This document shows positions 23,662-59,317 of a DNA stretch of 64,000 nt, in pieces. The position numbers and the translations under genes were made by a program. The notes under the pieces were generated by a model that saw nothing but the letters and a program-made list of their open reading frames with translations, was not told where the DNA came from and ran no database searches. The stretch comes from Pirellulaceae bacterium (GTDB lineage Bacteria; Planctomycetota; Planctomycetia; Pirellulales; Pirellulaceae). Location of the stretch: the NCBI GenBank assembly GCA_044235425.1, contig JBIIHW010000009.1:1-64000 (forward strand), in the 5' to 3' direction. Each line of letters opens with the position of its first letter. Position 1 is the stretch's first letter.

Positions 23662-26600
23662 CTACACGACCGTCGTCACGCGGAATCGTTTATTGGCTGT
23701 ATCATTGGTGAGCGTGTACTTGGCCGCACTGGGAGCAGCCTGACCAGGGAAGGTCCCCAAGTTGGGAGCATTGGCACTGGAGTAGGTGTAGGTTCCCTCG
23801 GTCGTCAGTACATCGAACGGTCCTGCATTTTGCGTCGTCCCATACGCCAGCAGATTCAGACGCGATGAACCCGATAAGGTGAGGTTTCCCGCTCCAGTCT
23901 GCACGAAGCGGCCTGCGTTAGAGGTCGGTGATGAGGCCACAAACACGACCTGCAACAGGGCATTTCCTGAGAACGTGACATCCCCACCGCCACTCACGAC
24001 ATATCTGGACGCTCGAACCGAGGCCGCGAACGCAGCCGTGGATGAGTTGTTGAGTGTCAACTGGCCCTGACGGTTGGAAGAATCGACCAGCACGAGGAAG
24101 CCATTCACGTTCAGGGCTCCACTCGTTATGGAGAGACCACCGCCGTACGTACGCATGATATTCCCTGTGATTGCAGCACCGGACTTTAAGGTCACAGTAT
24201 TGGAACCGGCATTGATCGATGATGACGACTGAGTTCCACGAATGTTCGCCCAGACCAAATCGCCGATCGCCACATTACCTCCAGCGTTCAGCGTAAATCC
24301 GCCGCCCGTGAATCCCATCGTGGCGCTCCCTCCCATCGTCGTGCTGACAGTGGTAGGAGCTTGAGTCGTGAACGTGGTGCCGGCGGTCAAGCTACCCGTT
24401 CGTGCTCCTACGGGACCATTGATCAGGATCGTCGTTCCAAAATTCATCGTCAGACTTCCGACCGTCGAGGTGGCCGTAGTGCTCGAGATATCCGCGGTGT
24501 TCGTGGTTCCGCGAATCCATTTCCCAGCCGAGTTCGTGCGATAGGATCCACCAGTCAGCGAGATGTTCCCACCGTTGGTGTAAATATGAGCACTGGGAGC
24601 GAGTTCGCCGTTGACGGCGTTGATCGACAATGTATGAGTGCTGAGTGCGGAGGTACTGGTGAACACGTCGCCTTGCAGGCTGATATTTCCGTCGGATGTC
24701 AAACTGACATTGCCATAATCAGCCTCAATCATCGTGCCACTACCTTGAGTCGTAATGGTGGAGCCGGCTGTTATGGTGACGGCGCCACCCTGAACGGCGG
24801 CCGCCAGATTCACGGTAGAGCTAGCGTCGATTGTCAGTGTACCGCTCGACGAGACCGTTGTCCCATTCGTGGCATTGATCGTAGCCCCCGTCTGCGAACT
24901 GATAGCCGCTCCCGTTAGCGAAATGTTTCCACCAGTTGAGGAGAGCGTGCTGGTGACCGAGATGTTGCTGAATCCGTCGGTTAAGTTACCAGCATCTACC
25001 GTAATAGCGGCGGGACCACCGGCATTCGCTGCGGTTACTTGTCCGAGCGTGGCTGAACCAGTGCTCGTGATCTCAACAGCGCCCTGCGTAGTGGTGATAG
25101 CGCCCGTGCCGGTGAAGGTTCCCGTGGTTGTGATGGTGACGCTACCAGCCGTCAAGGTGCCTGTATTCACATTGCCCGTGTGATTCATCAGCAGCGGTGC
25201 GGACGACGTGTTAATCGTTCCAGCCGATCCACTAAATCCAACGCCCGAAGTGGAAATCTGGCCACCATCGGTCGACCAACTACCCATTTGATTGAGTGAC
25301 TGACCACCGGAGCTGATGGTGATGATCGCGGCGCCGCCATTCGACGCAGACAAATCGTTAATAGTGGCCGAGCCACTGCTGGTGATGCTGATATCACCGG
25401 CGGTGGTCGAAAGGGCGCCCTGGAGCGTGAAGGCGTTTGCTCCCGTCACCGCAAAGGACTTCGCCTGCCCACCTCCAACGCTCACATCCCCCGTTTGTCC
25501 AATCGAAACCGCACCAGTCCCCGTCCCACCCGTGGTGTCCAGAGAGTTCACGGCGAGGTTTGAGCTGTAGGTGCCGGATCCCGTCGTGGTGTAATCGCCG
25601 CCGGTCGTCGTGATCTTAGCTTGCTGCGAAATGGACTCGCTATTGATCGTCAGGTTAGCTCCGTCGGTTTGCAGCCCCTGACTATTATAATCGCCGATGG
25701 TGATAGTATCGTTGCCTATACCACCATTCACTGTAATGCTGCCGCTAGGTCGAGTGAAATTCACGGTTTCGATCGTCGCACCGCTGACGGTGGTCTGAGT
25801 GGCGCTGCTGTTGGCCACCGTTACCGCATCATCGCCACTGGTCAGGTTCAGCGTGGCACTGACAATCGGCATGGTGGTCGTGATCGGCTCTAAGCCCGCG
25901 AAGCTCACCGTGGAACTGTTCGGACCGGTCGTTTCGACACCGCTGGTTCCAACCACACCGAGATTGATGGTGCCAGAACTGGAATTGGTGGCATTGACCA
26001 CAAACGTGTCGAACGAATAGGTGCCATTCGTGGCTCCGTTGCTATCGACCAGAAACAGCGTGTCGGTACCGGTCCCCCCTAAGCCATCGTAGGACGCCGG
26101 AATAGCGACCGGGGTTTCCGCGATGCTGTTGAAGAGCGGGTCACCGTTGGCGTAGTCAATGGTAAGTGAGTCGGTCGAGTCGGCCAAGCCTGAAATGCTG
26201 ATGCTGGTGACGAGTCCAAGCGGCACCAAGTCGGCACCGGTGTTGATCACGTCTCCATTGCCATCCTTCAGCAGGATGTTCGGACCAAACGGAGTTGAAT
26301 TGGTGTCGAGCATCAGGGTGCAGGCCCCCGCACACGAGAAGATCATCGGCTGGTAAACATAGGCAGCCAGATCAAGGAACTGATTTGAAGTCTGATTCGT
26401 GAGGCTCGCGAGCAGCACGATCGACTCACCCTGTGCATCAACTGACGATACGGTGAGCTGATAGCCATTGTTCGTAATGGAATTCAATGGCCCCTTGACC
26501 AACTGGAAGACTTGATTGTTTTCGACGTCGGCGGTGACGGCATTGACATCGATCGTGGAACCATTGGCAAACACCGTCGGCCCGTTCGTTGTCATCGCTG

Positions 26601-28725
26601 GCGAGGGATTGGCAAGGTTGACCGACCAGATGCTCGTCGCACCAAAGGTAGTCGTCACGTTCTGTTGCACGTTGAAAGAGGTCGCGGAAAGCTTGCCGTT
26701 GATCGTGATCGCGCCGGATTGGTTCAGGTCCAACGCACCGACCGTCATCAGGGCATTAGCTGCTAAACTGAATGTGGTGCCACTCGTCGTAAACGAATTC
26801 GCGTTCGAACTGGTGGTACCTAGGGCGATGGCGCCCGTAACGTCAATCGAAACGTTTCCGGTCCCCGCTCGCACTCCTAGCGCACTGAAGGAGCTCCCTG
26901 TTGCAGAGATCTCTTGATTGGCCGTCTGAACATAAGAACTCACATCCACTGAGCCACCTGCCAGGGTGACCGTGCCAGTGCCACTGGTCCGCAAAAAGCC
27001 ACCGATGGTAATGGCGCTAGGGGCGGTAATGGAAATATTGTTGTTCTGCCCATCCACACTTCCTGTGATCGACAAGCTGGTGGCGGAATTCACAACGAAT
27101 CCGCCCGTAAACAAGCCGCTGTTAATGGTAATGCCACCCTGCGTGGAGCTGAGGGTGACCGTGCCACGGTTGGAAGCACCACCCGAGGCGATCGTACCAT
27201 GACCGGCGGGACTGGTGATCGAAGCGCCGGTCACCGCCACAGTTCCCCCGTCATTTTCGATGCGACGATAGGTAACGGTACCAGCACTGGTCAGACTGAT
27301 GTCACCTTTGGCTGGCGACGCATTAGTGGCTTTTACGGTCGCGAGGGTCAACGCGGCGGTGGAGTTCACCGTTACCGTGCCCTTCATCGCCGTCAGGTTC
27401 CCGGAAACGATGGAAATCGAATTGGCATCCAAGGAGATCGCACCAGCCGTAATCGTGGTCGCCACCGAGATACTACCACCCGCTCCAGCCCCACCCGTGA
27501 GCGTCACCGCTCCCCCGACCGATCCGGTCCAGGTGGTGATCCCCCCCGTAGAAATCTGAATCTGCGGCGCATTGATCGTAACCGCAGCCCCTGTGGTCAC
27601 GATATTCGGCAAGGTCACGGAACCAGCCGACGACGTGATTCCCATGGTACCGGTGTTCGCAGCTTGCCAACCCGTCGAAGAGCTGACATTACCAACGGCG
27701 CTCACGGTCAAATTGCCCACATAGGTACGAATACCAGCGGAGCTTAGTGTATGGGTTGTGGCGCTGAACGTACCTGCGGCGGCGTAAGAAGCTAGATTGA
27801 TGCTGTTGGCTGACGAGGTCGTGGGCGTCGTCAGGGTGATGGCGCCAAAGGGAGCCGTCAAACTTGACGATACAGCTCGGAGCGACGCCGATGTCGACGT
27901 CGTATTGATCCGCGAGCCCTCGATGGCGATATTACCACCATCTGTCAGTCCGCTGGCAATCGTCACCAAACCGCTCGCCAAGATCGACAAATTCCCTACG
28001 TTACTGCTGGGCCGCGACGCACTCACCGCACCCGCGGTGACGGCGCCAGCGGAGCGAATCGTGATGTCGCCGGCGGTTGAAGTCAGGTTCGCCAGCGTGA
28101 CACTAGAAGCTCCCTGGGACGCATTACCGATGTTCACAGAGCCAGCCGTAAGCGGCCCAGTGGAACTAATCGTGCCGGTCTGATCCAGCGTCAAAACACC
28201 GGTACCGTTGAGCGTGAATGAATTGGTCGCACCGCGGCTAAAACTGACACCTGTCGCGGTAAAATTACCGCCGTTGACCGCCAGAGCTGTGCTAGCCGTG
28301 ACCGTTTCCGCGGTGATCTGAATGCTCCGCCCTTGAGTGATGCCGCTGAATGTGAAACCAGTCGTGCCCGAAGGCCCGAGCGTCACGGAATCAGTACCTC
28401 CCTGGCCGTTCACAATCAAACCTGTCAGCGAAGCTACCGTGGCCGACTGCACACCGGGAGCGGTTGAGAGGTCAATTGCACTTTCAACACCACCACCGAG
28501 CGGCAAGTTGTGGGCCAGATTTCCGCCTGACCCGAGCGAGATCACAAGCGAATCGTTATTGCTATCGCCAATAAACTCGGCGACTCCACTAGTCAGACTC
28601 ACCCCCCAGGCCATTAAGTCTCTTTTCTCGAGGCCTTCGAAACGCAACTTGCCCTGCAACTTACTCCGCGACAGACGTTGCTTCCGAGCCGCAATCCGAC
28701 CACGATCCTGGGAAAACCGAAACAT
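23662..28725 (-). CDS. giant Thr/Ser/Gly-rich beta-helix-like surface protein (adhesin/autotransporter-associated beta-strand-repeat-like), paralog A
   Basis: 1687 aa with an extreme T/S/G/A/N composition. Repeated 'GxxTLxxxGxxTxTGxxTV'-like strands are present. The N-terminal motif is KLRFEGLEKRDLMA. A conserved central module is present (SCAGACTLML ... DSLTIDYANGDPL ... YDGLGGTGTDTLFLVDSNGATNGTYSFDTF). Confidence 0.7.
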   Translation of the reverse strand: MFRFSQDRGRIAARKQRLSRSKLQGKLRFEGLEKRDLMAWGVSLTSGVAEFIGDSNNDSLVISLGSGGNLAHNLPLGGGVESAIDLSTAPGVQSATVASLTGLIVNGQGGTDSVTLGPSGTTGFTFSGITQGRSIQITAETVTASTALAVNGGNFTATGVSFSRGATNSFTLNGTGVLTLDQTGTISSTGPLTAGSVNIGNASQGASSVTLANLTSTAGDITIRSAGAVTAGAVSASRPSSNVGNLSILASGLVTIASGLTDGGNIAIEGSRINTTSTSASLRAVSSSLTAPFGAITLTTPTTSSANSINLASYAAAGTFSATTHTLSSAGIRTYVGNLTVSAVGNVSSSTGWQAANTGTMGITSSAGSVTLPNIVTTGAAVTINAPQIQISTGGITTWTGSVGGAVTLTGGAGAGGSISVATTITAGAISLDANSISIVSGNLTAMKGTVTVNSTAALTLATVKATNASPAKGDISLTSAGTVTYRRIENDGGTVAVTGASITSPAGHGTIASGGASNRGTVTLSSTQGGITINSGLFTGGFVVNSATSLSITGSVDGQNNNISITAPSAITIGGFLRTSGTGTVTLAGGSVDVSSYVQTANQEISATGSSFSALGVRAGTGNVSIDVTGAIALGTTSSNANSFTTSGTTFSLAANALMTVGALDLNQSGAITINGKLSATSFNVQQNVTTTFGATSIWSVNLANPSPAMTTNGPTVFANGSTIDVNAVTADVENNQVFQLVKGPLNSITNNGYQLTVSSVDAQGESIVLLASLTNQTSNQFLDLAAYVYQPMIFSCAGACTLMLDTNSTPFGPNILLKDGNGDVINTGADLVPLGLVTSISISGLADSTDSLTIDYANGDPLFNSIAETPVAIPASYDGLGGTGTDTLFLVDSNGATNGTYSFDTFVVNATNSSSGTINLGVVGTSGVETTGPNSSTVSFAGLEPITTTMPIVSATLNLTSGDDAVTVANSSATQTTVSGATIETVNFTRPSGSITVNGGIGNDTITIGDYNSQGLQTDGANLTINSESISQQAKITTTGGDYTTTGSGTYSSNLAVNSLDTTGGTGTGAVSIGQTGDVSVGGGQAKSFAVTGANAFTLQGALSTTAGDISITSSGSATINDLSASNGGAAIITISSGGQSLNQMGSWSTDGGQISTSGVGFSGSAGTINTSSAPLLMNHTGNVNTGTLTAGSVTITTTGTFTGTGAITTTQGAVEITSTGSATLGQVTAANAGGPAAITVDAGNLTDGFSNISVTSTLSSTGGNISLTGAAISSQTGATINATNGTTVSSSGTLTIDASSTVNLAAAVQGGAVTITAGSTITTQGSGTMIEADYGNVSLTSDGNISLQGDVFTSTSALSTHTLSINAVNGELAPSAHIYTNGGNISLTGGSYRTNSAGKWIRGTTNTADISSTTATSTVGSLTMNFGTTILINGPVGARTGSLTAGTTFTTQAPTTVSTTMGGSATMGFTGGGFTLNAGGNVAIGDLVWANIRGTQSSSSINAGSNTVTLKSGAAITGNIMRTYGGGLSITSGALNVNGFLVLVDSSNRQGQLTLNNSSTAAFAASVRASRYVVSGGGDVTFSGNALLQVVFVASSPTSNAGRFVQTGAGNLTLSGSSRLNLLAYGTTQNAGPFDVLTTEGTYTYSSANAPNLGTFPGQAAPSAAKYTLTNDTANKRFRVTTVV

Positions 28726-28885
28726 TCGTAACTCCTAAAAAGCACACTCTAAAAACCTGAAACAGGTCACCCGATCCGCCACCACGGCCGAGCAACGACG
28801 CGAGGAACTTAGAAATAGTTCCCTCAGCTAGCATTTGGAACGCGAGTTCAGACGATAATTTATCTCATCGATTCCAAAAAAAAAT

Positions 28886-28926
28886 TTCGACGGCCGGCAT
28901 ATCCGACCGTCGAAATTGTAGGCTCA
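28886..28926 (-). terminator. rho-independent terminator (minus strand) downstream of giant paralog B
   Basis: On the minus strand the hairpin tttcgacgg-N13-ccgtcgaaa is followed by a T9 run (A-run 28886-28894 on plus). Confidence 0.5.
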
Positions 28927-28966: not shown

Positions 28967-31900
28967 CTACGGGGCTACACGCACAATAACCCGTTTATTC
29001 GCTGTCTGCACGGAGATGGTGGTCACTTTGGCCGTGAGTCCAGTTTTCGTCGGTGTTGCACCAGCATACGTAAAGGTACCCGTGGTGGTGAGAATTGGAT
29101 AGTCGGTCGTCGTGTTCGACACGATTGAACCGGTGGCGATCCCGTTGATGACAAAGCCACCATTGGAAGCTGGCACCGTAAGATTACCGCCTCCAGTTTG
29201 CGTGAACACAACCTGAGGATTATTCACGTTAACTTGCATCGTCATCTTCGCCGCCGCCGTGCCTGCAAAGGTCATGTTGCCGCCACCCGTTACCGTATAC
29301 GAACGAGCGTTGAGGGATTGATTGATCGTGATCAAACCGGAATGATTCATCGTCAGACTTCCCATACGACTGACGCCTTCAAACAGATTCACCGGCCCAT
29401 TCGTGGTGAGCGTTCCACCGTTCAGGGTTAGATTACCACCAAACGTTCGCACGGCATTCGTGGTCGCCACTGTCTGCCGGAGCCGAATGGCGGCAGTGCC
29501 CGCCGAAAATGTACTGCTGGCTTGGCTTAAGAGGCGAGTATTCATCGTAACGGAGTCGAAGAGGGAAATGCCGCCCGGTGCGTTAATCACAATACCGCCC
29601 ATGTAGGCCACCAGGGTGTCGCCTGCCCCCACCGTTGTGAATGTGGTACCGGCAGTCAAATTCATCGAACCAGCAATCGTCGTCCCATTCAAGCTGATCG
29701 TCGTATCAAAGTTCATCGTCAACGTGCCTGTGGCTCCCGTCGTCGCACTGGCCGTTGCCGCTCGCACAGATTTCGAATTCAAATTCAAGAACGACCCGCC
29801 ACTCAATGTCACCCCCCCACCGTTTGATAAGATACTGCCGCGAGCCTCAAGAATACCTGTTCCAGAGTTGGCAGAAATCGTAGCCGAGCCAGATCCCGTC
29901 GCGGCCGCAATGGCCACATCGCCTCCCAGTGTCATGTTGCCAGCACTGGTTAAACCAATACTACCAACCAAAGCGGTGACGGCACCGCTCGTCGACAAGG
30001 TCGTGGCTGAATTGATCGTCACCGTCCCACCCAGCACTGCACCGGTGAAAGCCGTGGAGCCCGTCGTGGAGGTCACGGACAACGTATTTCCCGTGCCCGA
30101 AGCGGTACCGGTCGAGACCCCTGCCAAAGCCAACTGGCCGCCGGTGATGCTGATGGCCCCAACGGTACCCGTGGAAGCCGTGTTGATCGTACTGGTCGCT
30201 GTTACCGTCCCAGAAGCGTTGATCGTAACGGAACCCTCTCCCGTCGTCCCAGTCGCACTGACCGTCGTCAAATTCACCGTCCCCAGCGCGGTGATGGACA
30301 CCGCACCCGCACTGGCCGCCAAACCTGCCGTGGCGGTGACGTCGGTAGCGGAGTCCAGGGTAATCGAGCTACCGCCGACCGCTGCGGTGCGAATCGCTCC
30401 GGCTGTGGTCGTTATCGAAACCGGTCCAAAGCCCAGCACACTGTTGCCGGCATTCACCGCCACCAGAGTCGCTTGACTACCCGAAATCGTGACGGCACCT
30501 GCATTGGTCGTGATCGCCCCCGTAGCGGTCACTGCTCCAGTGGCTGCGAGGTTGACCGTACCCGGACCAATTGCTCCGGTGGCCGACACACCGGTCACGG
30601 AGAGGGAGCCAGCGGAGATAAAACCTATGTTTCCCGCACCGGCCGTCAAGACCCCGGTGGAAAGGTCGAAGGCCGATTGTATATCGATCGACGAACCCGT
30701 GACCGCTCCTAAGGTTCCCGCTTGAGTAGTCGTTGTAGTCGTGATGCTGACCGGTCCCAGGTTGGGAGACAAACCAGCAGCAATGCTGGTGGAAGTCGAT
30801 GCCAAGCTAATACGATCGGCGTTCAGGGTGATGCCACCGCCGTCCGTCGACATCGCCCCATTGATCGTTAAGGTACCAACTGCGGAAATCGCAATGGTTC
30901 CATTGCTACTCGGCCCCGACACGGCCGCTCCGGCAACTGTGATCGCTTGCGTGCCCGTCAGTTCCAGCGTACCACCGTTCAGATTGATGACGCCGGTCGA
31001 AATTGATCCGGAGGCACTCGACAGAGATAGCGTTGCTGCTGTCACGTTACCCGTCGACGCATTGCCGTCCGACGAAATATTAACTGCACCGCGCGTGGCA
31101 CCGCTGCCGGCGGTTACAGGCCCGAGGGACAACGTCCCGCTGTTGGCCGAAATCGTGATCGTCCCCCCATCGGTCGCCAAAGATTTCGAACCCGCGCCCG
31201 TGATCGAACCACCCGCACTGCTGACCGCAATCGTTCCACTTGGAGCACTCACTGCATTCAGCGAGATATTTCCCCCGGCGGTCACCGTGGCATTACCTTC
31301 AGCGGTGCTGAAGTCGAAAACACTGAGTGTGGTCGCAGCGGTCAGTGACACATCTCCCTTGGCCGTGCCACCCAACATGTTGATGGTACCTTGATTGATC
31401 GTTACCGTGCCGGCTCCCGTTCCCCCTAGCGTGTTGAAGTTCGTCGAATTGCCGATACCGCTGTAGGTTCCCGAGCCACTGTAGTTGAGGCTACCACCCA
31501 ATGTCACCACGGTATTATTTTGAGTGATATTCTCAGAATCAATTGTGACACTGGCACCGTTCGTCTGGTAATCGGTCGTAGTAATGGAGTAGGTGAGCGA
31601 GTCGGTACCGTCACCGCCGTAAATGTTCATCTGTACGCTCGGCTTCGGCGTCGACAACGTGGTGATGGTGCTGCCGTTGAAGCGAATGTTGGTCGCGCTC
31701 AGCTGCGTTAGCGTCACGGCGTCGTTCCCGCTGGTGAAGGTCACCGTTTCAGTGGCGATGGGCAGAGCCGTTGTGACCGCTTTCAGATTCAAATAACCGA
31801 TCTCACCCGGGCTGACCGCGGAAGCCCCTTCCTTCGCACCCGCGGCGATGATCCCCGAATTGGCATCAATCGACGTTGAGGAGAACGTGTCAAACTCATA

Positions 31901-33928
31901 GCTGCCATTCGTCGCCCCGTTTGCATCTACGAAGGTCAGCGTGTCCGTACCAGTTCCCACCCCCCCGTCATACACCGCCGGAAACTTCACACCCTGGTAG
32001 CTCAGTGGATCCCCATTGCTGTAATCCACCGTTAACGTATCGGTGGAATTTGCATTGCCGTTGATCTCGAGGTAGTCGACCAAGCCCACCGGAGTGTTCG
32101 TCGGAATAATGTTCACTCTGGAGCTATTCAGCACCATCAGCGTGGGACCGAAATGCGTCGAATCGGTTCCCAGAACCAACGTACATGATCCACCGCAGTT
32201 GACGACCAGGTTTTCTCGTACGTAGCCGAAAATCTTCAGGCCTTGACCGCCACCCGCCAGAGTCTCTACCTCGGGAATAAAAATCGTATACTCGTCTTCA
32301 TTGTCGATCGGCAAGATCGCCGTCAGGTTCATCCCGTTGTCGATGACTGATCCCGTGGTCTCGACAATCCGATAAATCGAGACATTTTCCACGTTGATCG
32401 CCCTGGGATCAAGATTCACCAGCGCCCCAGAAGCAAACTCCACATTGCCAACCGCACTCAACGCGGGCGTCGCCGTCGCCAAGTTCACATTCCAAACACT
32501 CGTGCTTCCGAAGACAATCTGGCCTGCGCCCGTGCTCGTAATTTTGTTCGTCGTCACTTCGCCGTTAAACGTTGAGGTGCCGCTGTGATCCAGCTTCAGT
32601 TCCGTCATAGGGACCGAAAACTTGCTGCCCGTCGTCTGCGTAAATGTAGTGCCCGATGACGTCAGCGTACCACCGACCCGCACGCTACCAATCGTGACGG
32701 CACCAGTGGCCGTGATCGTCAGATCGTTGCTATCGACTTGCGTTGTGCCGAGCGTCACGCTACTGCCGGATACCGTCACGTTCGCATTATTCGCCACCAA
32801 AAGGCTGGTGGAAACTCCCCCGCCGGCACTCAACGACACCGACGTCGCATCGGGCGCATCGACTCGCCCACCCAGAGCAATTGCTCCATCCGACGACAGG
32901 GACAGGCTACTACCGCGAATGAGGAAGGGCGAGGTGCTTGAAATACCCGCATTGGTGCCAACACTAAAGGAACTTGCATCAATGGGCGAACTGAGCGTTA
33001 CCGTGCCGGTCGCGGCGGGATTAAGCTGCACCGGACCACTGAGGGGCAGGGACCGGTTCGTTAAAATACCGGCAGCACCTGTCGTCGGCCTGCCAACGAT
33101 ATTGTTGCCCGAAATCGTGACCGAGCCACCGTCCGTGAGCACTGCTCCATAGGAAACATCACCGGTCGCCGAGACGGTCACATTGCCAACGGAGGAGCCA
33201 GTCGCAGCCGCAGAAACTCGGGCCGGCAAGTCCAAGTTTCCCGTGGCGGAAATCGAGATATCCCCCGTCAGCGAAGTCCACTCACCCGTACCCGTCACGC
33301 TGCCGCCGGTGAGCGAGATCGATCCGGAACTCACGTTGCCACTCCCCAGTGCGATGCCCGTCGTGGGGTAATTCAGCGACAGAGTTCCGCTATTGGTGGT
33401 CCAAGTCAAGCTGCCGGTCTTGACCAAGCTATTGCCGGACGCCGTGAACGTACCGCCAGAGACATTGATCGCGGTGGAGGTCAGCGTGAGGGTCTCGCTG
33501 GTAATACTGGCGCTGCGACCGCTGGTGATTTGCGTGAACCCAAAGTTGGTGCTCGATCCACTGAACGTGACCGCATCAGTGCCGTCACCGCCGTCAATCG
33601 TTAGCCCCGTGATGACACTCACGGCCCGCGCCTGCACACCCGCCGTGGTGGGGTCGAGGTCAGTGGCGCTTGCCAAGCCGCTAGTGGCCAGAGGAATATT
33701 ATGAGTGAGTACGCCTCCGGAACCCAGCGTGAGCACCAGCGAATCGTTATTCGAATCGCCCTGAAAGGTAACATCATTACCTGTGAGGGAGACATTGAAG
33801 GCCATGAGCGAGCGATCTTCCAGCCCTTCAAACCGTAGCCCGCCACGTCGCGCCCGTGCGTTTAAAGAACGACTCTTGCGAACCAGATTACGACGCCACG
33901 ATTTTTTCAGCCGACTTAACATACTCAC
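28967..33928 (-). CDS. giant Thr/Ser/Gly-rich beta-helix-like surface protein, paralog B
   Basis: 1653 aa. The N-terminal motif is RRGGLRFEGLEDRSLMA, followed by a region aligning to paralog A (DSNNDSLVLTLGSGGVLTHNIPL). The central module is conserved (CGGSCTLVLGTDSTHFGP ... DTLTVDYSNGDPL ... YDGGVGTGTDTLTFVDANGATNGSYEFDTF). Confidence 0.7.
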   Translation of the reverse strand: MSMLSRLKKSWRRNLVRKSRSLNARARRGGLRFEGLEDRSLMAFNVSLTGNDVTFQGDSNNDSLVLTLGSGGVLTHNIPLATSGLASATDLDPTTAGVQARAVSVITGLTIDGGDGTDAVTFSGSSTNFGFTQITSGRSASITSETLTLTSTAINVSGGTFTASGNSLVKTGSLTWTTNSGTLSLNYPTTGIALGSGNVSSGSISLTGGSVTGTGEWTSLTGDISISATGNLDLPARVSAAATGSSVGNVTVSATGDVSYGAVLTDGGSVTISGNNIVGRPTTGAAGILTNRSLPLSGPVQLNPAATGTVTLSSPIDASSFSVGTNAGISSTSPFLIRGSSLSLSSDGAIALGGRVDAPDATSVSLSAGGGVSTSLLVANNANVTVSGSSVTLGTTQVDSNDLTITATGAVTIGSVRVGGTLTSSGTTFTQTTGSKFSVPMTELKLDHSGTSTFNGEVTTNKITSTGAGQIVFGSTSVWNVNLATATPALSAVGNVEFASGALVNLDPRAINVENVSIYRIVETTGSVIDNGMNLTAILPIDNEDEYTIFIPEVETLAGGGQGLKIFGYVRENLVVNCGGSCTLVLGTDSTHFGPTLMVLNSSRVNIIPTNTPVGLVDYLEINGNANSTDTLTVDYSNGDPLSYQGVKFPAVYDGGVGTGTDTLTFVDANGATNGSYEFDTFSSTSIDANSGIIAAGAKEGASAVSPGEIGYLNLKAVTTALPIATETVTFTSGNDAVTLTQLSATNIRFNGSTITTLSTPKPSVQMNIYGGDGTDSLTYSITTTDYQTNGASVTIDSENITQNNTVVTLGGSLNYSGSGTYSGIGNSTNFNTLGGTGAGTVTINQGTINMLGGTAKGDVSLTAATTLSVFDFSTAEGNATVTAGGNISLNAVSAPSGTIAVSSAGGSITGAGSKSLATDGGTITISANSGTLSLGPVTAGSGATRGAVNISSDGNASTGNVTAATLSLSSASGSISTGVINLNGGTLELTGTQAITVAGAAVSGPSSNGTIAISAVGTLTINGAMSTDGGGITLNADRISLASTSTSIAAGLSPNLGPVSITTTTTTQAGTLGAVTGSSIDIQSAFDLSTGVLTAGAGNIGFISAGSLSVTGVSATGAIGPGTVNLAATGAVTATGAITTNAGAVTISGSQATLVAVNAGNSVLGFGPVSITTTAGAIRTAAVGGSSITLDSATDVTATAGLAASAGAVSITALGTVNLTTVSATGTTGEGSVTINASGTVTATSTINTASTGTVGAISITGGQLALAGVSTGTASGTGNTLSVTSTTGSTAFTGAVLGGTVTINSATTLSTSGAVTALVGSIGLTSAGNMTLGGDVAIAAATGSGSATISANSGTGILEARGSILSNGGGVTLSGGSFLNLNSKSVRAATASATTGATGTLTMNFDTTISLNGTTIAGSMNLTAGTTFTTVGAGDTLVAYMGGIVINAPGGISLFDSVTMNTRLLSQASSTFSAGTAAIRLRQTVATTNAVRTFGGNLTLNGGTLTTNGPVNLFEGVSRMGSLTMNHSGLITINQSLNARSYTVTGGGNMTFAGTAAAKMTMQVNVNNPQVVFTQTGGGNLTVPASNGGFVINGIATGSIVSNTTTDYPILTTTGTFTYAGATPTKTGLTAKVTTISVQTANKRVIVRVAP

Positions 33929-38419: not shown

Positions 38420-42832
<4,413 letters not shown>

Positions 42833-49360: not shown

Positions 49361-49663
49361 GTAGCCGTCGACAGGTGGTTGCGCTGCTGGCTGCTGGATG
49401 GAATCCCTGAATTTGAATCAGCTGGTGTCATACGAGCTGGTTTCGATTGAACTGGTTTCGCTATCGCGGATTTCCACAAAGCAGGTTGGCGTAAATCCCT
49501 CTTCGGCGAGTGTTGAAGCGTCTGTGACTCGGCATCTTTTGATGTTCGGAGTACAGTCTCAGCGACATCGGCGTTAACAGCCGCTGCGTTAGTCCGTTCT
49601 GTGAAACTCACGGTTGGCCTATTTCTTGCACATTCAGGCGCACTTTTTATAGGGATTCATCCC

Positions 49664-50755
49664 ATGCAGTTTTTTCCTCATTTGTTTGACCAGAGTATTC
49701 GTACTCATTTTTCATCCTGTGTAAGTCGCTTCTCAGTTCATCGCTTTTCGGTTGGCGACTCATCGGTCAGCACCACGTCCTCTCAATCCGCTGTCGTGTG
49801 CACGGTCTCGCGGAAGCGCGGCTTCACCTTGGTAGAGCTCCTGGTCGTGATCGCGATCATTGGGATCTTGGTGGCACTATTATTGCCGGCCGTGCAGGCG
49901 GCGCGCGAGGCAGCGCGGCGCACTCAGTGCACCAACAACATGCGTCAAATGGCGATCGCGGTTCACAATTACCATGATTCCTATTTGGCCTTTCCCTACG
50001 CCTATCAGCAGTCCATCTCCATGCACGCTCGACTGCTTCCTTACATGGAGCAGACGAATGTCTACAACATGATTGACTTTCGAGTGCCATGGAACGATCC
50101 GGCGAATGCTCCCGTTCTCCCGATTCGTATTCCCACCTTCATTTGTGCCTCCGATCCCGACATGCTGCCGACGAATCTAGGTGGCAGTAACAATTACTAC
50201 GGCAACATGGGGACGAACATTCTGTACCTGGCTCCATCGACGGTTCCGGGGAATCCGAATTTCGGCATGCCGGAACACAATGGAGCGTTTTCGGCGAGTG
50301 TCGCGGTTCGGTTTGGGGACATCCTGGATGGCACCAGCAACACCGCCATGTTCGGTGAGAAGAATCGGGGAGATGGATCGAATGGTCGCAGCACTCCGGC
50401 ATCGGACACCTATCGACCCGGAACCTTTCCGGCGACGGCCGACCAGGCCCTGGCGGATTGCATGGCAACCAACATCAATGACCTGGCGATGCAAGGTTAT
50501 TCCAACGTCGGTGCTCCTTGGTTGCAACCTTATCACTCCACCACCGCTTATTACCACATTCTGCCACCCAACTCGCGTTCCTGCATGTTCCCTCCAGGAC
50601 GCATCGCCACGACGGCGATGAGTCGTCACGCGGGTGGCATCGTGCAATTTGCCATGTGCGATGGTTCGGTGCGCGGGGTGCCGAGTTCGATTGATTTGCG
50701 CGTCTATCGAGCTGTAGGTACTCGCGATGGCGGCGATGTGGTGTCCGGTTTTTAA
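49664..50755 (+). CDS. DUF1559 protein with prepilin-type N-terminal cleavage/methylation motif (H-X9-DG family)
   Basis: It has the class-III signal G|[42 protein letters not shown] typical of Planctomycetes DUF1559. The start is uncertain. ATG 49664, preceded by AGGGA, gives a 49-aa leader. GTG 49796 would give the usual short MCTVSRKRG leader. Confidence 0.7.
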
Positions 50756-52622: not shown

Positions 52623-55600
52623 TCAATTCAGCTGTTCGTTCGCCTCATCCAGATCGCTGACCAGGTCCTCTCCGAACCGCCAGAACCAATCCAGTTCGTC
52701 GCCCCCGAGCAGCGTATCGACTGCGGCATCATCTAAGCAGGTCGTGGTGTCCAGGAGGGCGGTGCCATTGAGCCCTGGGGGCAGCGAGTTATCGGCAGCT
52801 CCAGTTCCGCCCGCACTCACCGAAACCACTCGCAGGTTGCCGATGCGCGCCGCGAAGACCAAGTCCGTGCGTTGCCATTCGGCGATGAGCGACTGATAGG
52901 ACGCTCGACTGACTGTCCCTGCCGCTTCATCCTGATAGGTTTGCAATCCGCCGATGAGGATATCGTCGGCAGAGTCGCCCGAGAGCTGATCGGAGCCGGA
53001 GCCACCGACGAGAATGTCGCGCCCGGCTCCTCCCGCCAGGACATCGTTTCCAGCTCCACCCAGTAGAACATTATCCAGCGAGTTACCTTGCAAGGTATCG
53101 GCCAACGGAGTGCCAACGATATGTTCGATCGGCGTGGCAGAGCCCAAGATGAGCTTGAGCTGCGCGTTCACGGTCTGCAGGCTGGTGCTTCCCAGATCGA
53201 CCGAGACGCCGGTGGTCGATGAGCGGGAAAAATCAAGCCAATCCTGGCCGGAATTATCAACGAGGGTATCGGTTCCTAAGGCCGAATCGGTGTTGAACAG
53301 GTACGTGTCATCGCCGTCACCACCATTGAGCGTGTCATTGCCGCTCGACCCGATCAGCAGATCCTGACCTTGCAGGCCGACGAGTTGATCATCGCCGCTC
53401 CCGCCGGTGAGCTGATTGTCGTTGGTATTGCCTGTGAGCAGGTCGGCCAGCGAGCCACCCGTGAGATTCTCAAAATCGCTTCCCAGTCCGACGTTAATCG
53501 TCAGGTTGGAATGCACCACTTGGGAACCATCGCTGGCGAGACTGAAGGTAATTGCCACGGTCGTGGTGAGCGAAAAATCAATGGTGTCGTTGCCACCAGC
53601 AGCTTCATCCAGTTGATCGGTGCCTTGGAGCGTGTCGACGTCGAATCGATACGTATCGTTGCCCGCTCCACCGCGCAGCAGATTGTTGAGGCGATTGGAG
53701 GTAAACGTGTCGTTGAGTGACGTGCCGTAAACATTTTCAAAGGACACATTCGTACCGAGGTTGAGCGACAGATTGCTGTTGACAACCTGGGCGACCGTCG
53801 TAGCCAAATTGAGACTCACACCGAGCGTTGTGGAACGGGAGAAATCGAGTAGATCGGTGCCTGCCGAATCAGTCAGCGTGTCGGATCCCAGCGCCGTGTC
53901 GGTATTGAAAATGTAGAGATCATCTCCGGCGCCGCCATTGAGCGTGTCATTTCCGGCGAGACCGATCAGCGTATCATCCCCCTCCAAGCCACTTAGCGAA
54001 TTCGCATTCCCATTTCCGGTCAGTAGATCATTGAGTGGCGTGCCAAGAATGTTTTCCAGGACGTTGCCGGCCCCGAGAGTAAGCTGGAGATTCGCATTCA
54101 CCGTTTGGGGCGCGGCTTGACTGAGATCCATCGTTACGGGTAGCAGCAGCGTGCTGGAAAAATCAAGTGTGTCGGTACCACCGCTGGCGGTCTCCGTGAC
54201 TGAGTCCGTACCTAAGTCGGTATCGGTATCAAACACAAAGCGATCATTTCCCGTACCGCCAATCAACTGATCGTCGCCGCCCAGTCCCGTGATCACATCG
54301 TCACCCGCGCCACCATTGATCACATTGGCCGCGTCATTGCCCGTCAAGTTATCATTTAAAGAACCACCGGTCAGGTTTTCAAAACTAAGATCCGTCCCCA
54401 GATCGATGGTGAGATTCGCATTAATCACCTGGATGCCGCTGGACAACAAACTGAAGGTCACCGGCACGCTGGTGGTCAGCGAGAAGTCGAGCGTATCGTT
54501 GCCGGAGCCCGCTTCGACCAGTCGGTCACGACCCTGGGCGCTTCCCACGTTGAAGCGATAGGTATCATTGCCCAGCCCGCCCATTAACACATTATCGGCT
54601 TGGTTACCGACGAGCGTATCGTTGTTGTTCGTGCCAATCACGTTTTCGATCAGACTGGAGGCGGTCAACGTGAGCCCCAAATTGGCATTCACCGTTTGCG
54701 CCGTCGTTTGGCTCAGATTGACAGCAACCCCGAGCAGCGTGCTGTCCGAAAAATCGAGTGTGTCCATTCCGGCGGAATCATTGATCGTCTCACTGCCAAG
54801 TGCGGTATTGGTGCCGAAGCGGTACGTATCATCTCCTTCGCCGCCATTGAGCGTATCACTGCCACCGAGACCGGACAGCGAGTCGTTACCAGCACCGCCA
54901 CTTAAGTTGTTCGCGTTCGTATTCCCCAAGATGGTGTCATTCAGCGGACTACCCACTACATTTTCTAACTGATCATTCGCCGTGAGGATCAAACTCAAGT
55001 TGCTGTTGATCACCTGGGCTGTTGTTTGGGAAAGATTGACTGCAATGGGCAAGAGTGTCCCGGTCGAAAAATCGAGCGTATCGCCGGTCCCTGACGTGTC
55101 ACTGATCGAATCGGTGTCCAGGTTGGTATCGGTGTTGAACAGATAGCGATCATTCCCAAGGCCGCCGATGAGCGAGTCGTCGCCGGCCAACCCGACCAGC
55201 AGATCATCGCCTCCATTGCCGGTCAGGACATTTTTACGCGCGTTACCGGTGAGCGAATCAGCGAGGGAGCCGCCGATGAGATTTTCAAAATTCGAGGAAT
55301 CAACCAGGTCGACGGTCAAATTCGCATTCACCACTTGCAAGCCATCCTGCGACAGCGAGAACGTCACTCCGACTGTGGTGGTGAGCGAGAAGTCGATGGT
55401 GTCGTTGCCGGTACCCGATTCCTGGATGAAGTCGACATCCTGGTACGTGTCCACATCAAATCGGTACGTATCATCCCCCAAGCCACCCCGCAAGTAATTG
55501 CTGAGTCGGTTGGAGGTCAGCGTATCATTGAGGGACGTGCCATGGACGTTCTCAAAGACCGCCGTCGTTCCCAGGTTCAAAATCAGATTACTGTTGACGG

Positions 55601-58469
55601 TCTGATTGCTCGTGGCCGAGAGATTAACCGCGACTCCCATCGTGGTAGACGAGGAGAAATCAAGCAGATCGGTACCGCCGGCATCGGTCAGGGTGTCGGT
55701 GCCGAGTGACGAATTGGTATTGAAAAAATAGATGTCATCGCCCAGACCGCCATTCAGGCTGTCATTTCCGCCGAGTCCTTGGAGCTGGTCATTACCGCCG
55801 CTACCCTGCAAGGAATTGGCGGATGCGTTGCCGATGAGCTGGTCATTTAAAGCGGTGCCCAAAATATTTTCGGTGCCCGTGGCCGAAGCCAGCGTGAGCG
55901 TCAGATTGCTGTTCACGACTTGAGCCGTGGTGAGGCCCAGATTCACCACAATCGGTAACGTGGTCGTGGCGGAGAAGTCGAGCGTATCGGAGCCGCCTTG
56001 AGTATCGTCGACTCGATCTGCCCCAAGCGGCGTATCCGTGTTGAAAAAATAGCGGTCGTTGCCGTCGCCACCGATGAGCGTGTCGTTGCCCGTGAGGCCG
56101 ATCAGGGAATCCGCGCCTGGACCGCCGCTGAGCGTATTGTTCAGGGAGTTTCCGATCAGCGTGTCGCCCAGTTCACCGCCCACGACATTCTCTATCGCGG
56201 TGCTGGAGCCGAGGATCAAACGATGATTGGTGTTGACGACTTGTGCCGTCGCAAGCCCCAAGTCAATTGTGACCGTCTGCGTGTTGGTAGGGGCATAATT
56301 CAGCGAGTCGGCAGTGCCCGACGAATCATCAATCGTGTCGGTGCCCTGAAATGTGTTGGTGATAAAGCCATAGGTATCACTGCCCGCTCCACCACGAAGC
56401 AGATTGTCACGTCGATTGCCCAACAGCACGTCGTTCAGCGGAGTGCCAATAACGTTTTCCAAATCATCCTGGCCGGGTAGTGAGAGGCGCAAATTGCGAT
56501 TCACCGTCTGATCATCGAGCGACGCTAAATCGACACTCACCGATAATGTGGTCGTTGCCGATAAATCCAGCGTATCGACGCCGCTGACGTCAAAAATCGT
56601 CACCGTCCCCAGGGCCGAATCGGCGTCGAAGAGATAGGTGTCATCCCCAGCTCCACCTTCCAGCAGATCATTGCCCGCTAATCCCTGCAGCAGATCCGCA
56701 CCAGGACCGCCCACCAGATGATTCGCCAGGTTATTTCCGATCAGAGTATCGTCCAGTGATCCTCCCACGACGCGTTCGATCACCGTGGCTGCCGAAAAAG
56801 TTAACGACAAATTCGCGTTGATTGTCTGCGCCGTGGCCTGACCGAAATTGAAGGCGATGACCTGATTCTCGGTGGCCGAAAAATCAACGGTATCCAGTCC
56901 GCTATTGCTGGCCTCGTTAATCGTGTCAGCACCGAGTGGGTTATCGGTGTCGAAGAGATAGGTGTCATCTCCCAGACCGCCGAAGAGCGAGTCATTGCCG
57001 CTTAAGCCGGCCAGCGTGTCGTCACCACTGCCGCCACCGATCGAGTTATTAGCAGCGTTGCCGGTCAGTTGATCGTTGAGAGATCCGCCTAGAAGATCTT
57101 CTAAAATCGTACCGGCGCCGATCGTCAGCGTCAGATTACTGGTGACGAGCTGTGCGGTGGTGAGCGAAAAGTCGAGCGTCAGTCCGACGGTCGTGGTGGG
57201 CGAGAAGTCGACGAAATCATTCGCACCGTCCGAATCCAGGATCATGTCGGCGCCGAGCGGGCCATCGGCGTCAAATCGATAAACATCGCTTCCTGCTCCA
57301 CCCTGAAACGTATTGTTCGCGGGACCACTAATGAACAGATCGTTGAGGGGTGTGCCGATGACGTTTTCAAAATTCTGATTGTTCGTAAGCAGCACGGTGA
57401 TATTGGCGTTGAGTGCCTGCGCTGAGAAGAATCCTGTATTGATGTTGATCGATTTGGTCGTCGTCGCAGAAAAATCCAGCGTGTCGATTCCATCCACATC
57501 CTGGAGGATATCAGTCCCCAGCGGCGAATCAGCATCAAACAGATAGGTGTCGTTCCCCGATCCGCCGATCAGTTCGTCGGCACCATCAAGCCCCAGCAGG
57601 ATGTCATTACCCGCGGCACCATCCAAGCGATTGGCACCGGCGTTCCCGGTCAGCACATCGTTGCCACCTCCTCCGACGACCTGCTCATAGTCGCTGCCCG
57701 AGCGCAAATTGAGCGCCAGATTGGAGTTGATGACTTGCGTCGTGGCAGAGCCTAAATTTATCCGGACCGGCTGAGACTGCGTGGGGGAAAAATCCAGAAC
57801 TTCAATTCCGCCGGGGGATTCGGTGAGAGTATCGGTGCCCAGCGACTCATCGGCGTTGAACTGATAGCGATCATTCCCGCTTCCACCACTGATCGCATCG
57901 TCGCCACCGCCACCCAGCAACAGATCATCACCTGCATCGCCAGACAACGAGTCCGCGTCAGCACCACCATCCAGCACGTCATTGCCGTTGCCACCAATTA
58001 ATCGATCGGTGCCCGCATCGCCAAACAGCTGATCGTTGCCATCGCCACCAGTCAGTGAATCGTTGCCTTCACCGCCGCGCAGCAAATCGGCCGCAGGCGA
58101 GCCAGTCAGTGTGTCGCGGCCAGGGCCACCATCGAGCGTCACGGTTAAATTGGTGCCTGCGGCGAGCCTTGAGGGAGCAGTCAGACGATCATTGCCCTCC
58201 AGCCCCAGCACCGTGATGGACGAAACCGTTCCGACCGCAAATCGCTGGCTCAACCCACGAATCGTGTAAAACCCTCGAGATTGACTTACCAAGATGTCAT
58301 CGTTTCGGGGCGTCCCCTCAATCCGCAACTCCGTGCCGACCAGGGAGGCGGTGAGGGTCGCCGCCATCACTTGACGCTGTTCGAGAAATTCGCAGGACAA
58401 TTGACGTCGGCGCTGCTCCTGTTGTACTCGTCGGGCTCGCGATAAAAAACGCATGCTGCTCTTCCCCAC
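52623..58469 (-). CDS. giant hemolysin-type calcium-binding (RTX-like GGxGxDxL) repeat protein
   Basis: 1948 aa. It carries dozens of GGAGNDxLxGGxGDDTYxF nonapeptide-type Ca-binding repeat blocks interspersed with 'LDFSxTTTxxVxxNL' modules. The N-terminal motif is RRQLSCEFLEQRQVMAA. Confidence 0.75.
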   Translation of the reverse strand: MGKSSMRFLSRARRVQQEQRRRQLSCEFLEQRQVMAATLTASLVGTELRIEGTPRNDDILVSQSRGFYTIRGLSQRFAVGTVSSITVLGLEGNDRLTAPSRLAAGTNLTVTLDGGPGRDTLTGSPAADLLRGGEGNDSLTGGDGNDQLFGDAGTDRLIGGNGNDVLDGGADADSLSGDAGDDLLLGGGGDDAISGGSGNDRYQFNADESLGTDTLTESPGGIEVLDFSPTQSQPVRINLGSATTQVINSNLALNLRSGSDYEQVVGGGGNDVLTGNAGANRLDGAAGNDILLGLDGADELIGGSGNDTYLFDADSPLGTDILQDVDGIDTLDFSATTTKSININTGFFSAQALNANITVLLTNNQNFENVIGTPLNDLFISGPANNTFQGGAGSDVYRFDADGPLGADMILDSDGANDFVDFSPTTTVGLTLDFSLTTAQLVTSNLTLTIGAGTILEDLLGGSLNDQLTGNAANNSIGGGSGDDTLAGLSGNDSLFGGLGDDTYLFDTDNPLGADTINEASNSGLDTVDFSATENQVIAFNFGQATAQTINANLSLTFSAATVIERVVGGSLDDTLIGNNLANHLVGGPGADLLQGLAGNDLLEGGAGDDTYLFDADSALGTVTIFDVSGVDTLDLSATTTLSVSVDLASLDDQTVNRNLRLSLPGQDDLENVIGTPLNDVLLGNRRDNLLRGGAGSDTYGFITNTFQGTDTIDDSSGTADSLNYAPTNTQTVTIDLGLATAQVVNTNHRLILGSSTAIENVVGGELGDTLIGNSLNNTLSGGPGADSLIGLTGNDTLIGGDGNDRYFFNTDTPLGADRVDDTQGGSDTLDFSATTTLPIVVNLGLTTAQVVNSNLTLTLASATGTENILGTALNDQLIGNASANSLQGSGGNDQLQGLGGNDSLNGGLGDDIYFFNTNSSLGTDTLTDAGGTDLLDFSSSTTMGVAVNLSATSNQTVNSNLILNLGTTAVFENVHGTSLNDTLTSNRLSNYLRGGLGDDTYRFDVDTYQDVDFIQESGTGNDTIDFSLTTTVGVTFSLSQDGLQVVNANLTVDLVDSSNFENLIGGSLADSLTGNARKNVLTGNGGDDLLVGLAGDDSLIGGLGNDRYLFNTDTNLDTDSISDTSGTGDTLDFSTGTLLPIAVNLSQTTAQVINSNLSLILTANDQLENVVGSPLNDTILGNTNANNLSGGAGNDSLSGLGGSDTLNGGEGDDTYRFGTNTALGSETINDSAGMDTLDFSDSTLLGVAVNLSQTTAQTVNANLGLTLTASSLIENVIGTNNNDTLVGNQADNVLMGGLGNDTYRFNVGSAQGRDRLVEAGSGNDTLDFSLTTSVPVTFSLLSSGIQVINANLTIDLGTDLSFENLTGGSLNDNLTGNDAANVINGGAGDDVITGLGGDDQLIGGTGNDRFVFDTDTDLGTDSVTETASGGTDTLDFSSTLLLPVTMDLSQAAPQTVNANLQLTLGAGNVLENILGTPLNDLLTGNGNANSLSGLEGDDTLIGLAGNDTLNGGAGDDLYIFNTDTALGSDTLTDSAGTDLLDFSRSTTLGVSLNLATTVAQVVNSNLSLNLGTNVSFENVYGTSLNDTFTSNRLNNLLRGGAGNDTYRFDVDTLQGTDQLDEAAGGNDTIDFSLTTTVAITFSLASDGSQVVHSNLTINVGLGSDFENLTGGSLADLLTGNTNDNQLTGGSGDDQLVGLQGQDLLIGSSGNDTLNGGDGDDTYLFNTDSALGTDTLVDNSGQDWLDFSRSSTTGVSVDLGSTSLQTVNAQLKLILGSATPIEHIVGTPLADTLQGNSLDNVLLGGAGNDVLAGGAGRDILVGGSGSDQLSGDSADDILIGGLQTYQDEAAGTVSRASYQSLIAEWQRTDLVFAARIGNLRVVSVSAGGTGAADNSLPPGLNGTALLDTTTCLDDAAVDTLLGGDELDWFWRFGEDLVSDLDEANEQLN

Positions 58470-58765: not shown

Positions 58766-59317
58766 CTACTTCACCACGTTGCCCGCAGCGGCCACGACGG
58801 CCTTTACATCCTTCTCAGCCAGCTTGTCCTTGCCAAACGCATGGTTGGCCTGGACCTTGCCCTTGTTCCACACCATCACGGTGACGTCCGCGTCACGCGA
58901 AATCTTGTAGCCATCAGGACCTTCACTCGTCTGGAAGACGGTGAGTGGCGTGTTGGACAACTTCTGCGTCTTGGCCATGGCCTTGAGCTTCGGCTCGGCA
59001 GCATCTGGCTCGTCCGACAGATAGACCACGAAGGCCTTCATCGACTTGCCCTTGTTTTGACCAACCGTGTCATCGATCTGCTTCACCAAGCTGGCGACAT
59101 CATCGCCCAGACGTCGAGTGAAAACAGCGACCACGGGATTGTTGCCATACTGGCAGCGATAGCACAGAGTCTTGCCTTCGCTAGGACCCGAGCAATCCTT
59201 GACGTCAAACGCGCCAACGAACTCACCCACGGCCAAACCCGACTTCACGTCCGCCGCCCAGGCTACACCGGCAGTTGCCAGCAACACCGCTACCAACGCG
59301 AGCACTCGCTTCATCAT
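58766..59317 (-). CDS. secreted hypothetical protein with CxxC motif
   Basis: Cleavable signal peptide (MMKRVLALVAVLLATAGVAWA) and CYRC. A thioredoxin-like fold is possible but not supported. Confidence 0.4.
   Translation of the reverse strand: MMKRVLALVAVLLATAGVAWAADVKSGLAVGEFVGAFDVKDCSGPSEGKTLCYRCQYGNNPVVAVFTRRLGDDVASLVKQIDDTVGQNKGKSMKAFVVYLSDEPDAAEPKLKAMAKTQKLSNTPLTVFQTSEGPDGYKISRDADVTVMVWNKGKVQANHAFGKDKLAEKDVKAVVAAAGNVVK

Follow-up and report, generated by a model that had tools for sequence, protein, structure and literature searches.

A planctomycetal N-terminal box on three giant proteins of a Pirellulaceae bacterium as the probable core of an export or sorting leader

Three giant proteins encoded on one stretch of DNA from a Pirellulaceae bacterium (GenBank assembly GCA_044235425.1, contig JBIIHW010000009.1, positions 1 to 64,000; this whole 64,000-nucleotide stretch is referred to as the window) begin with the same short, charged peptide, which raises the question of what this peptide is and what it might do there. 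We call the proteins giants A, B and C. All three carry a 13-residue box, L-x-x-E-x-L-E-x-R-x-[LV]-M-A, after an Arg/Lys-rich run. A preliminary description of the sequence had proposed a common N-terminal motif for the three, and it was right in this: the peptides it quoted were found exactly (A ...KLRFEGLEKRDLMA, B ...GLRFEGLEDRSLMA, C ...CEFLEQRQVMAA). The box is the already described Planctomycetes-specific N-terminal export-signal motif PF07595, i.e. a re-identification and not a discovery, and it is probably the conserved part of an N-terminal export or sorting leader specific to Planctomycetota.

The three leaders, all encoded on the minus strand, follow the same plan. In giant A the basic region occupies 28648..28725 (amino acids (aa) 1-26) and the box, LRFEGLEKRDLMA, 28609..28647 (aa 27-39); in giant B the basic region lies at 33839..33922 (aa 1-28) and the box, LRFEGLEDRSLMA, at 33800..33838 (aa 29-41); in giant C they are found at 58401..58454 (aa 1-18) and, as LSCEFLEQRQVMA, at 58362..58400 (aa 19-31). 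The first 30 aa of A, B and C contain 10, 12 and 8 Lys + Arg residues, as expected from the earlier claim that the motif follows an Arg/Lys-rich stretch. The interval 28610-28725, to which the motif of giant A had been assigned, does cover Met1 to Met38, and only the codon of the last box Ala ends one base outside it. Shine-Dalgarno-like sequences precede ATG 28725 (A; AGGAG), ATG 33922 (B) and ATG 58454 (C). The longest open reading frames (ORFs) of B and C begin at upstream GTGs (33928 and 58469), but the two ATGs are more likely to be the true starts; a public gene caller likewise places the start of giant B at 33922. The previous in-frame stop lies only 31-41 codons from the box, so there is no room upstream for a hidden hydrophobic segment.

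Is such a short motif more than a coincidence? The window, translated in all six frames, contains three matches to the pattern L..E.LE.R.[LVIM][LM]A, where 300 dinucleotide-preserving shuffles gave 0.007 on average, and a looser, generalised consensus adds just three further matches, all of them in short ORFs in non-coding frames. Giants A and B are tandem paralogues, 41% identical in their first 400 aa and 32% in the C-terminal 620 (E = 2e-40), so the box has occurred independently twice in the window, not three times. The boxes of A and B are identical in 11 of 13 residues and in only 3 codons. Since they diverge at the codons and agree in the residues, conservation acts on the peptide and not on the DNA. 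No Rfam match was found in the window.

PF07595 (Planc_extracel, "Planctomycete extracellular") is the only Pfam family that matches the three giant N-termini, with E = 5e-4 for the box of A, 9e-3 for B and 5e-3 for C, and NCBIfam holds no model of the box. The consensus RRLxxExLExRxLLA on cell-surface proteins of Rhodopirellula baltica is ascribed to Studholme et al. 2004 in PMC8567305, and a passage of PMC3343278 restates this 2004 description. In Tuwongella immobilis (2021), 52 genes carry LxLExLExRxxP; 20 of the 52 carriers were seen by proteomics, 8 exclusively in the sodium dodecyl sulfate-soluble fraction, and the motif is present on 8 of the 10 longest proteins (PMC8567305). The published description is that of a presumed novel export signal peptide ("thought to be"), given without mechanism (PMC8567305), which agrees with the preliminary description in treating the role as not established.

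The giants resemble the PF07595 motif in the N-terminal position after an Arg-rich run, the core E-x-L-E-x-R, the planctomycetal host, the large extracellular-type carriers and the lack of a classical hydrophobic core. They differ from it in the ending: the window has [LV]-M-A where R. baltica has L-L-A and T. immobilis x-x-P. That the window is planctomycetal can be read from its DUF1501 and DUF1559 proteins, the latter with a prepilin-type N_methyl segment, and from the only close homologue, which comes from a Planctomycetota metagenome-assembled genome (MAG); GFO/IDH/MocA oxidoreductases are encoded as well. The sequence of the window is also contained in a 140-kb contig from an uncultured metagenome. 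The DUF1559 (SBP_bac_10) protein (49601-50755, plus strand) has its prepilin N-methylation motif at residues 70-95 of the longest ORF, and its true start probably lies ~60-65 codons downstream of the listed GTG.

The box is not peculiar to this locus. One genome per bacterial or archaeal species was scanned with the back-translated pattern CTN NNN NNN GAR NNN CTN GAR NNN CGN NNN CTN NTN GCN, which gave at least 122 matches on at least 120 stretches; the following counts refer to the matches listed. Records named as Planctomycetota lineages make up 51 of 122. The distance to the previous in-frame stop (closed upstream frame) was at most 80 codons in 41 of 47 Planctomycetota matches (median 45) vs 12 of 63 from other phyla (median 218; Fisher p = 4e-13), and the box was both N-terminal and followed by a long ORF for 39 of 51 Planctomycetota matches vs 5 of 69 from other phyla. 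In this sample, the box as an N-terminal feature of long ORFs is restricted to Planctomycetota. The matches outside the phylum mostly represent one recurrent frame, …RRERRLEAR..LLALE[AR]LEQRRLLAADVGAGA…, which lies ~200-650 residues inside proteobacterial and actinobacterial ORFs of 260-800 aa (loci L002, L014, L023, L031, L034, L076, L078, L102, L109, L120 and others); the others are antisense frames. The recurrent frame probably reads a conserved GC-rich gene in an alternative or antisense register and is unrelated to the leader.

From these matches 45 Planctomycetota leaders were taken, one of which (L049) is probably spurious, and their features that were not forced by the pattern agree with the three giants of the window. 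The box starts at a median residue of 27, the 20 residues upstream of it contain a median of 6 Lys + Arg and 0 Asp + Glu, Arg stands at -2 in 30 of the 45, box position 3 is hydrophobic in 36, and the maximum 9-residue hydropathy has a median of 1.56. No leader has Pro at +1, and the Met at box position 12 that is typical of the window's giants recurs in 4 of the 45 as independent cases. The leader is all that the 45 ORFs have in common: their alignment has a mean column identity of 8% and is invariant in the box columns alone. PF07595 reaches E ≤ 1e-3 in 13 of them. A hidden Markov model built from the pattern-selected leaders brought in no more than 2-3 further cases among the fetched loci and gave the window variant 9-13.5 bits; it was not used as evidence.

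What the box precedes is diverse and of an extracellular type. Bodies of the 45 ORFs include dockerin, Big_9, cadherin-like, RTX, PATR and FG-GAP domains, matrixin (M10) and fungalysin M36 peptidases, and further phytase, rhamnogalacturonan lyase, PHA depolymerase, malectin and lamin-tail (LTD) domains. A metagenome scan for the variant of the window, F-E-G-L-E-x-R-x-L-M-A, yielded 19 contigs, ~15 of them with the same N-terminal anatomy, and here the box precedes PPC-domain proteins of 230-280 aa, DUF11 and SdrD_B proteins, an EEP + cadherin + PKD protein and a 5'-nucleotidase + choice-of-anchor I + CHRD protein. The carriers in the window fit this picture by architecture: giant C has RTX repeats, and giants A and B are beta-repeat proteins with relatives that have RTX-like and cadherin bodies. 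The motif had been put forward as a signature of very large extracellular proteins of the Planctomycetes type. PF07595 and the planctomycetal window bear out the second half of this; size does not hold, since the carriers of 230-280 aa imply that the box is not a property of giants as such (here it marks the three largest proteins of the window) and a secreted protein of 1470 aa in the window lacks it.

A second regularity is the place where the box ends. A word-indexed search for homologues of giant A aa 1-300 gave no more than a single partial protein, and an exhaustive HMMER search was used instead; with aa 1-1200 it retrieved 63 relatives, ~35 of which match only the first ~120 residues, i.e. 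the box and a beta domain of ~85 residues. In giant A this first folded domain (28378..28608, minus strand, ~aa 40-116) follows the box without an intervening residue. Each of the 35 relatives carries the box, again with zero gap between its end and the first domain strand. Position -1 is Ala in the three giants and A (21), S (10) or T (4) in the relatives; position -2 is L (15), P (15) or M (5), and position -3 is L, V, T, P or A. Further upstream, Arg occupies -5 in 35 of 35, Glu -7 and Leu -8 in 34 of 35 each, and Glu -10 in 26 of 35; between -25 and -14, most positions have Arg as their commonest residue. The selection placed no constraint on the register relative to the domain or on positions -2, -3, -10, -11 and -13. 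The box endings seen in relatives (LLA, LMA, VPA/TPA, LLS, PLA) account for the differing published consensus strings and for the fact that PF07595 finds only 3 of 28 giant-A relatives at E ≤ 0.01. Likewise, the regular expression suggested in the preliminary description, R-x-[LF]-x-[FL]-E-x-L-E-x-R-x-[LV]-[LM]-[AS], is too narrow at its C-terminal end.

A comparable junction appears in front of other domains. In L033, position 1 of the Malectin profile falls on the residue right after ...RRLLA; in L019, the lamin-tail (LTD) domain runs from residue 39 with the box ending at ~38-40; in L131, a few residues separate the box from the EEP domain, which runs from residue 62. An AlphaFold model of giant A aa 1-135, made from the alignment of the relatives (mean pLDDT 81, and >90 over residues 40-110), predicts a helix at 6-22 (pLDDT 63-75), no regular structure for the box at 27-39 and a first strand at 40-45; a model of aa 1-400 from a 3-sequence alignment was unusable (mean pLDDT 48). 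Moreover, the box and first beta-hairpin of giant C align to the profile of the A/B family (hhalign probability 95.4%, E = 1.8e-8).

The ~85-residue first domain gave no significant match in Pfam, among PDB sequences (leader + domain profile, 0 matches) or in a fold search. Its pattern, …VSLTG..V.F.GD..NDSL.L.V…G.L.HNL…G.L.S..DLD….G.QS……T.L.V.G..G.D, is found in giant A, in the equivalent region of giant B and in ~35 database proteins (P0003-P0059), and the bodies behind it vary between Thr/Ser-rich repeats, RTX-like repeats and cadherin. A strand-turn-strand module, G-x-x-Phi-x-Phi-x-G-[DT]-x-x-N-D-x-[LI]-V, follows the box in C (aa 32-55; 58290-58361, minus strand), A (aa 47-64) and B (aa 49-66), and stands behind the box also in L003, L024 and L081. 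What is modestly new is the generalised consensus with its lineage-specific endings, the zero-gap junction, and this undescribed ~85-residue domain in A, B and ~35 proteins.

The analysis shows the leader anatomy, the N-terminal position, the phylum restriction, the extracellular-type bodies, a fixed junction, peptide-level selection and the absence of a hydrophobic core. The leader consists of three parts: a Met with a stretch of 15-30 Arg/Lys-rich residues, the box in the generalised form L-x-Phi-E-x-L-E-x-R-x-[LVT]-[LPM]-[AST], and then, directly, the first residue of the folded protein. It stands in the place of a Sec signal peptide and would mark proteins for the cell surface or the medium, in the window two paralogous beta-repeat giants and one RTX giant. 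That the box acts as an export address is the part of this proposal in which we have most confidence, and we consider it quite likely. Whether the leader is removed after its small last residue seems to us evenly balanced. Because the invariant residues are charged (L-E-x-R) and the box is neither hydrophobic nor amphipathic, a specific partner, either a receptor or a leader peptidase, may recognise it as a linear motif in place of membrane partitioning, though we would put this at somewhat below even odds. With a helical hydrophobic moment of 0.14-0.31, the box does not qualify as an amphipathic helix, and that reading was rejected.

Taken as a whole, the idea of a phylum-specific, core-independent export or processing pathway, served by a dedicated receptor or leader peptidase and addressed through the box and its invariant L-E-x-R four residues ahead of a small junction residue, is a tentative one, and the odds are rather against it. 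If true, such a pathway would cope with proteins from ~230 aa to megadalton size, and the lineage-specific endings (LLA, LMA, xPA, LLS) would reflect co-evolution with the recognising partner.

Several points weigh against an interpretation as a dedicated leader. The PF07595 scores of A, B and C (20.1, 16.1 and 16.9 bits with 60-aa queries) fall under the gathering cutoff of 25.5 bits, an operational threshold for a model of 20 positions. The genome matches form a sample in undefined order, with taxa taken from record titles, and the scan pattern itself forced L, E, L, E, R, L and A, so that the statistics partly rest on forced positions. Likewise, the 35 relatives were selected through the first domain and anchored on the box core with a regular expression that forced L, E, R and the small residue. 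The zero-gap junction in the A family could represent joint inheritance of box and domain and not a processing site, and a small residue at -1 with an aliphatic one at -3 is also accepted by signal peptidase I, so a dedicated peptidase is not required. Further, no candidate machinery adjoins the giant genes in the 64-kb window, and a literature search on the motif, on secretomes and on giant genes found no mechanistic study, route or processing.

The explanation that survives best beside a dedicated leader is that of an atypical but ordinary Sec signal, in which the basic stretch would be the n-region, the Leu, Phe and Met residues of the box a minimal h-region, and signal peptidase I would cut after the final Ala or Ser without any dedicated factor. 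The N-terminal place, the strongly basic start, the small residue at -1, L, V or T at -3, the absence of Pro at +1 in the 45 leaders and the mature domain right behind the box would all suit such a signal, and the organism does use Sec signal peptides, as the window shows. What the giants lack is a hydrophobic stretch. Their maximum 9-residue Kyte-Doolittle means over the first 70 aa are 1.50 (A), 1.48 (B) and 1.67 (C), values like those of the window's cytoplasmic enzymes, vs 3.28 and 3.49 for its two classical signal peptides, so that the earlier characterisation of the motif as charged and unlike a classical Sec signal is upheld. Moreover, the three charged residues in the would-be core are its most conserved positions, while Sec signals are degenerate in sequence, and Pro at -2 in 15 of 35 relatives and Thr at -1 in 4 of 35 speak against this explanation as well. 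The box thus shares with Sec type I signal peptides the N-terminal place, the positive start, the small residue at the junction and the position directly before a mature secreted domain, but it has no h-region and its conserved residues are charged (E, E, R). We regard an atypical Sec signal as unlikely, although worth keeping in mind.

The two classical signals belong to a 183-aa ORF (58766-59317; a textbook Sec signal peptide, score 3.49) and to a 1470-aa ORF (38420-42832, plus strand; score 3.28, ...LLLLLLPLI...AVAHA|DD), and they imply that the organism also uses ordinary Sec signals. The 1470-aa protein is the fourth-largest of the window and carries no box, from which it follows that large secreted proteins here can use ordinary signal peptides too. 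It has no Pfam match, and shows PAN-type low-complexity repeats after the signal and an ASNNGS-repeat C-terminus.

A second alternative holds that the box is an N-terminal retention, anchoring or quality-control tag, comparable to the retention module of LapA-type RTX adhesins, and that export relies on another signal, such as, in the RTX giant, a type I signal at the C-terminus. Giant C does have the RTX repeats of a type I secretion substrate; to our knowledge, there is no reliable sequence model for C-terminal type I secretion signals. On the other hand, the box also precedes hydrolases of a soluble type without RTX repeats (M36, phytase, rhamnogalacturonan lyase, EEP, PHA depolymerase), which elsewhere rely on N-terminal signal peptides, and because the same box stands in front of such ordinary secreted hydrolases a role in retention or anchoring becomes less likely. 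Fold matches were not significant, and no ABC exporter, membrane-fusion protein or TolC-like gene is encoded in the 64-kb window. We therefore give this alternative very little weight. A chance or compositional resemblance, or an element at the nucleotide level such as an mRNA structure or a translation-initiation region, would suit a motif this short, part of whose sharing is explained by descent through the paralogy of A and B, but it is effectively refuted by the shuffles, by the many synonymous differences that separate the A box from the B box together with the empty Rfam search, and by the recurrence of the box at the N-termini of unrelated Planctomycetota proteins.

The conserved box of a planctomycetal leader can also be compared with other known export systems. 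Tat signal peptides (PF10518) likewise contain a conserved N-terminal motif with Arg, but the giants show neither S/T-R-R-x-F-L-K nor an h-region, and TAT_signal does not match them even at E ≤ 10; within the window only a GFO/IDH/MocA protein has a weak TAT_signal match, below the cutoff. ESPR (PF13018; autotransporters and two-partner-secretion exoproteins) and YSIRK-G/S (PF04650; Gram-positive surface proteins) are similar in being conserved N-terminal motifs on very large surface proteins. Both are add-ons to a classical n-h-c signal peptide, whereas the giants have no hydrophobic segment before or after the box. The double-glycine leaders of C39-peptidase ABC exporters offer a functional analogy only: they are non-hydrophobic linear-motif leaders with conserved Leu and acidic residues and a small-residue end, but the box has no Gly-Gly and another consensus, their substrates are usually small peptides, and no such exporter is found in the window. 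As for type I secretion, giant C has the repeats, and the 64-kb window no exporter genes.

The three genes themselves are sizeable. Giant A (23662..28725, minus strand) encodes a Thr/Ser/Gly-rich beta-repeat protein of 1687 aa, as judged from ORF and translation; its body is without a Pfam domain, its sole Pfam match being the N-terminal PF07595, a comparison with PDB sequences gave 0 relatives, and an identical gene is annotated on two public contigs. Giant B (28967..33922, minus strand) encodes 1651 aa from ATG 33922. The region that separates the stop of giant B from the start of giant A contains an intrinsic-terminator-like hairpin (28883-28917, minus strand; 15-bp stem with 8 G-C pairs, then a T-run), by which the tandem paralogues look like separate transcription units. 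Giants A and B also have their extreme C-terminus in common (…TANKR[FV].V…; 23662-23730 and 28967-29035, both minus strand), which could be a sorting or anchoring element. Giant C (52623..58454, minus strand) is an RTX-repeat protein of 1943 aa from ATG 58454, with 28 stretches matched by the Pfam family HemolysinCabind (E = 6.8e-100).

A large part of the secreted and surface proteins of Planctomycetota, most giant proteins included, is flagged by the motif, and hydrophobic-core signal-peptide logic would not be expected to recognise it. For annotation, the box offers a cheap call for extracellular proteins in planctomycetal genomes and MAGs, for which PF07595 is too narrow because the xPA, LLS and LMA variants are missed. 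Beyond annotation, the leader provides a handle on how Planctomycetota export very large proteins.

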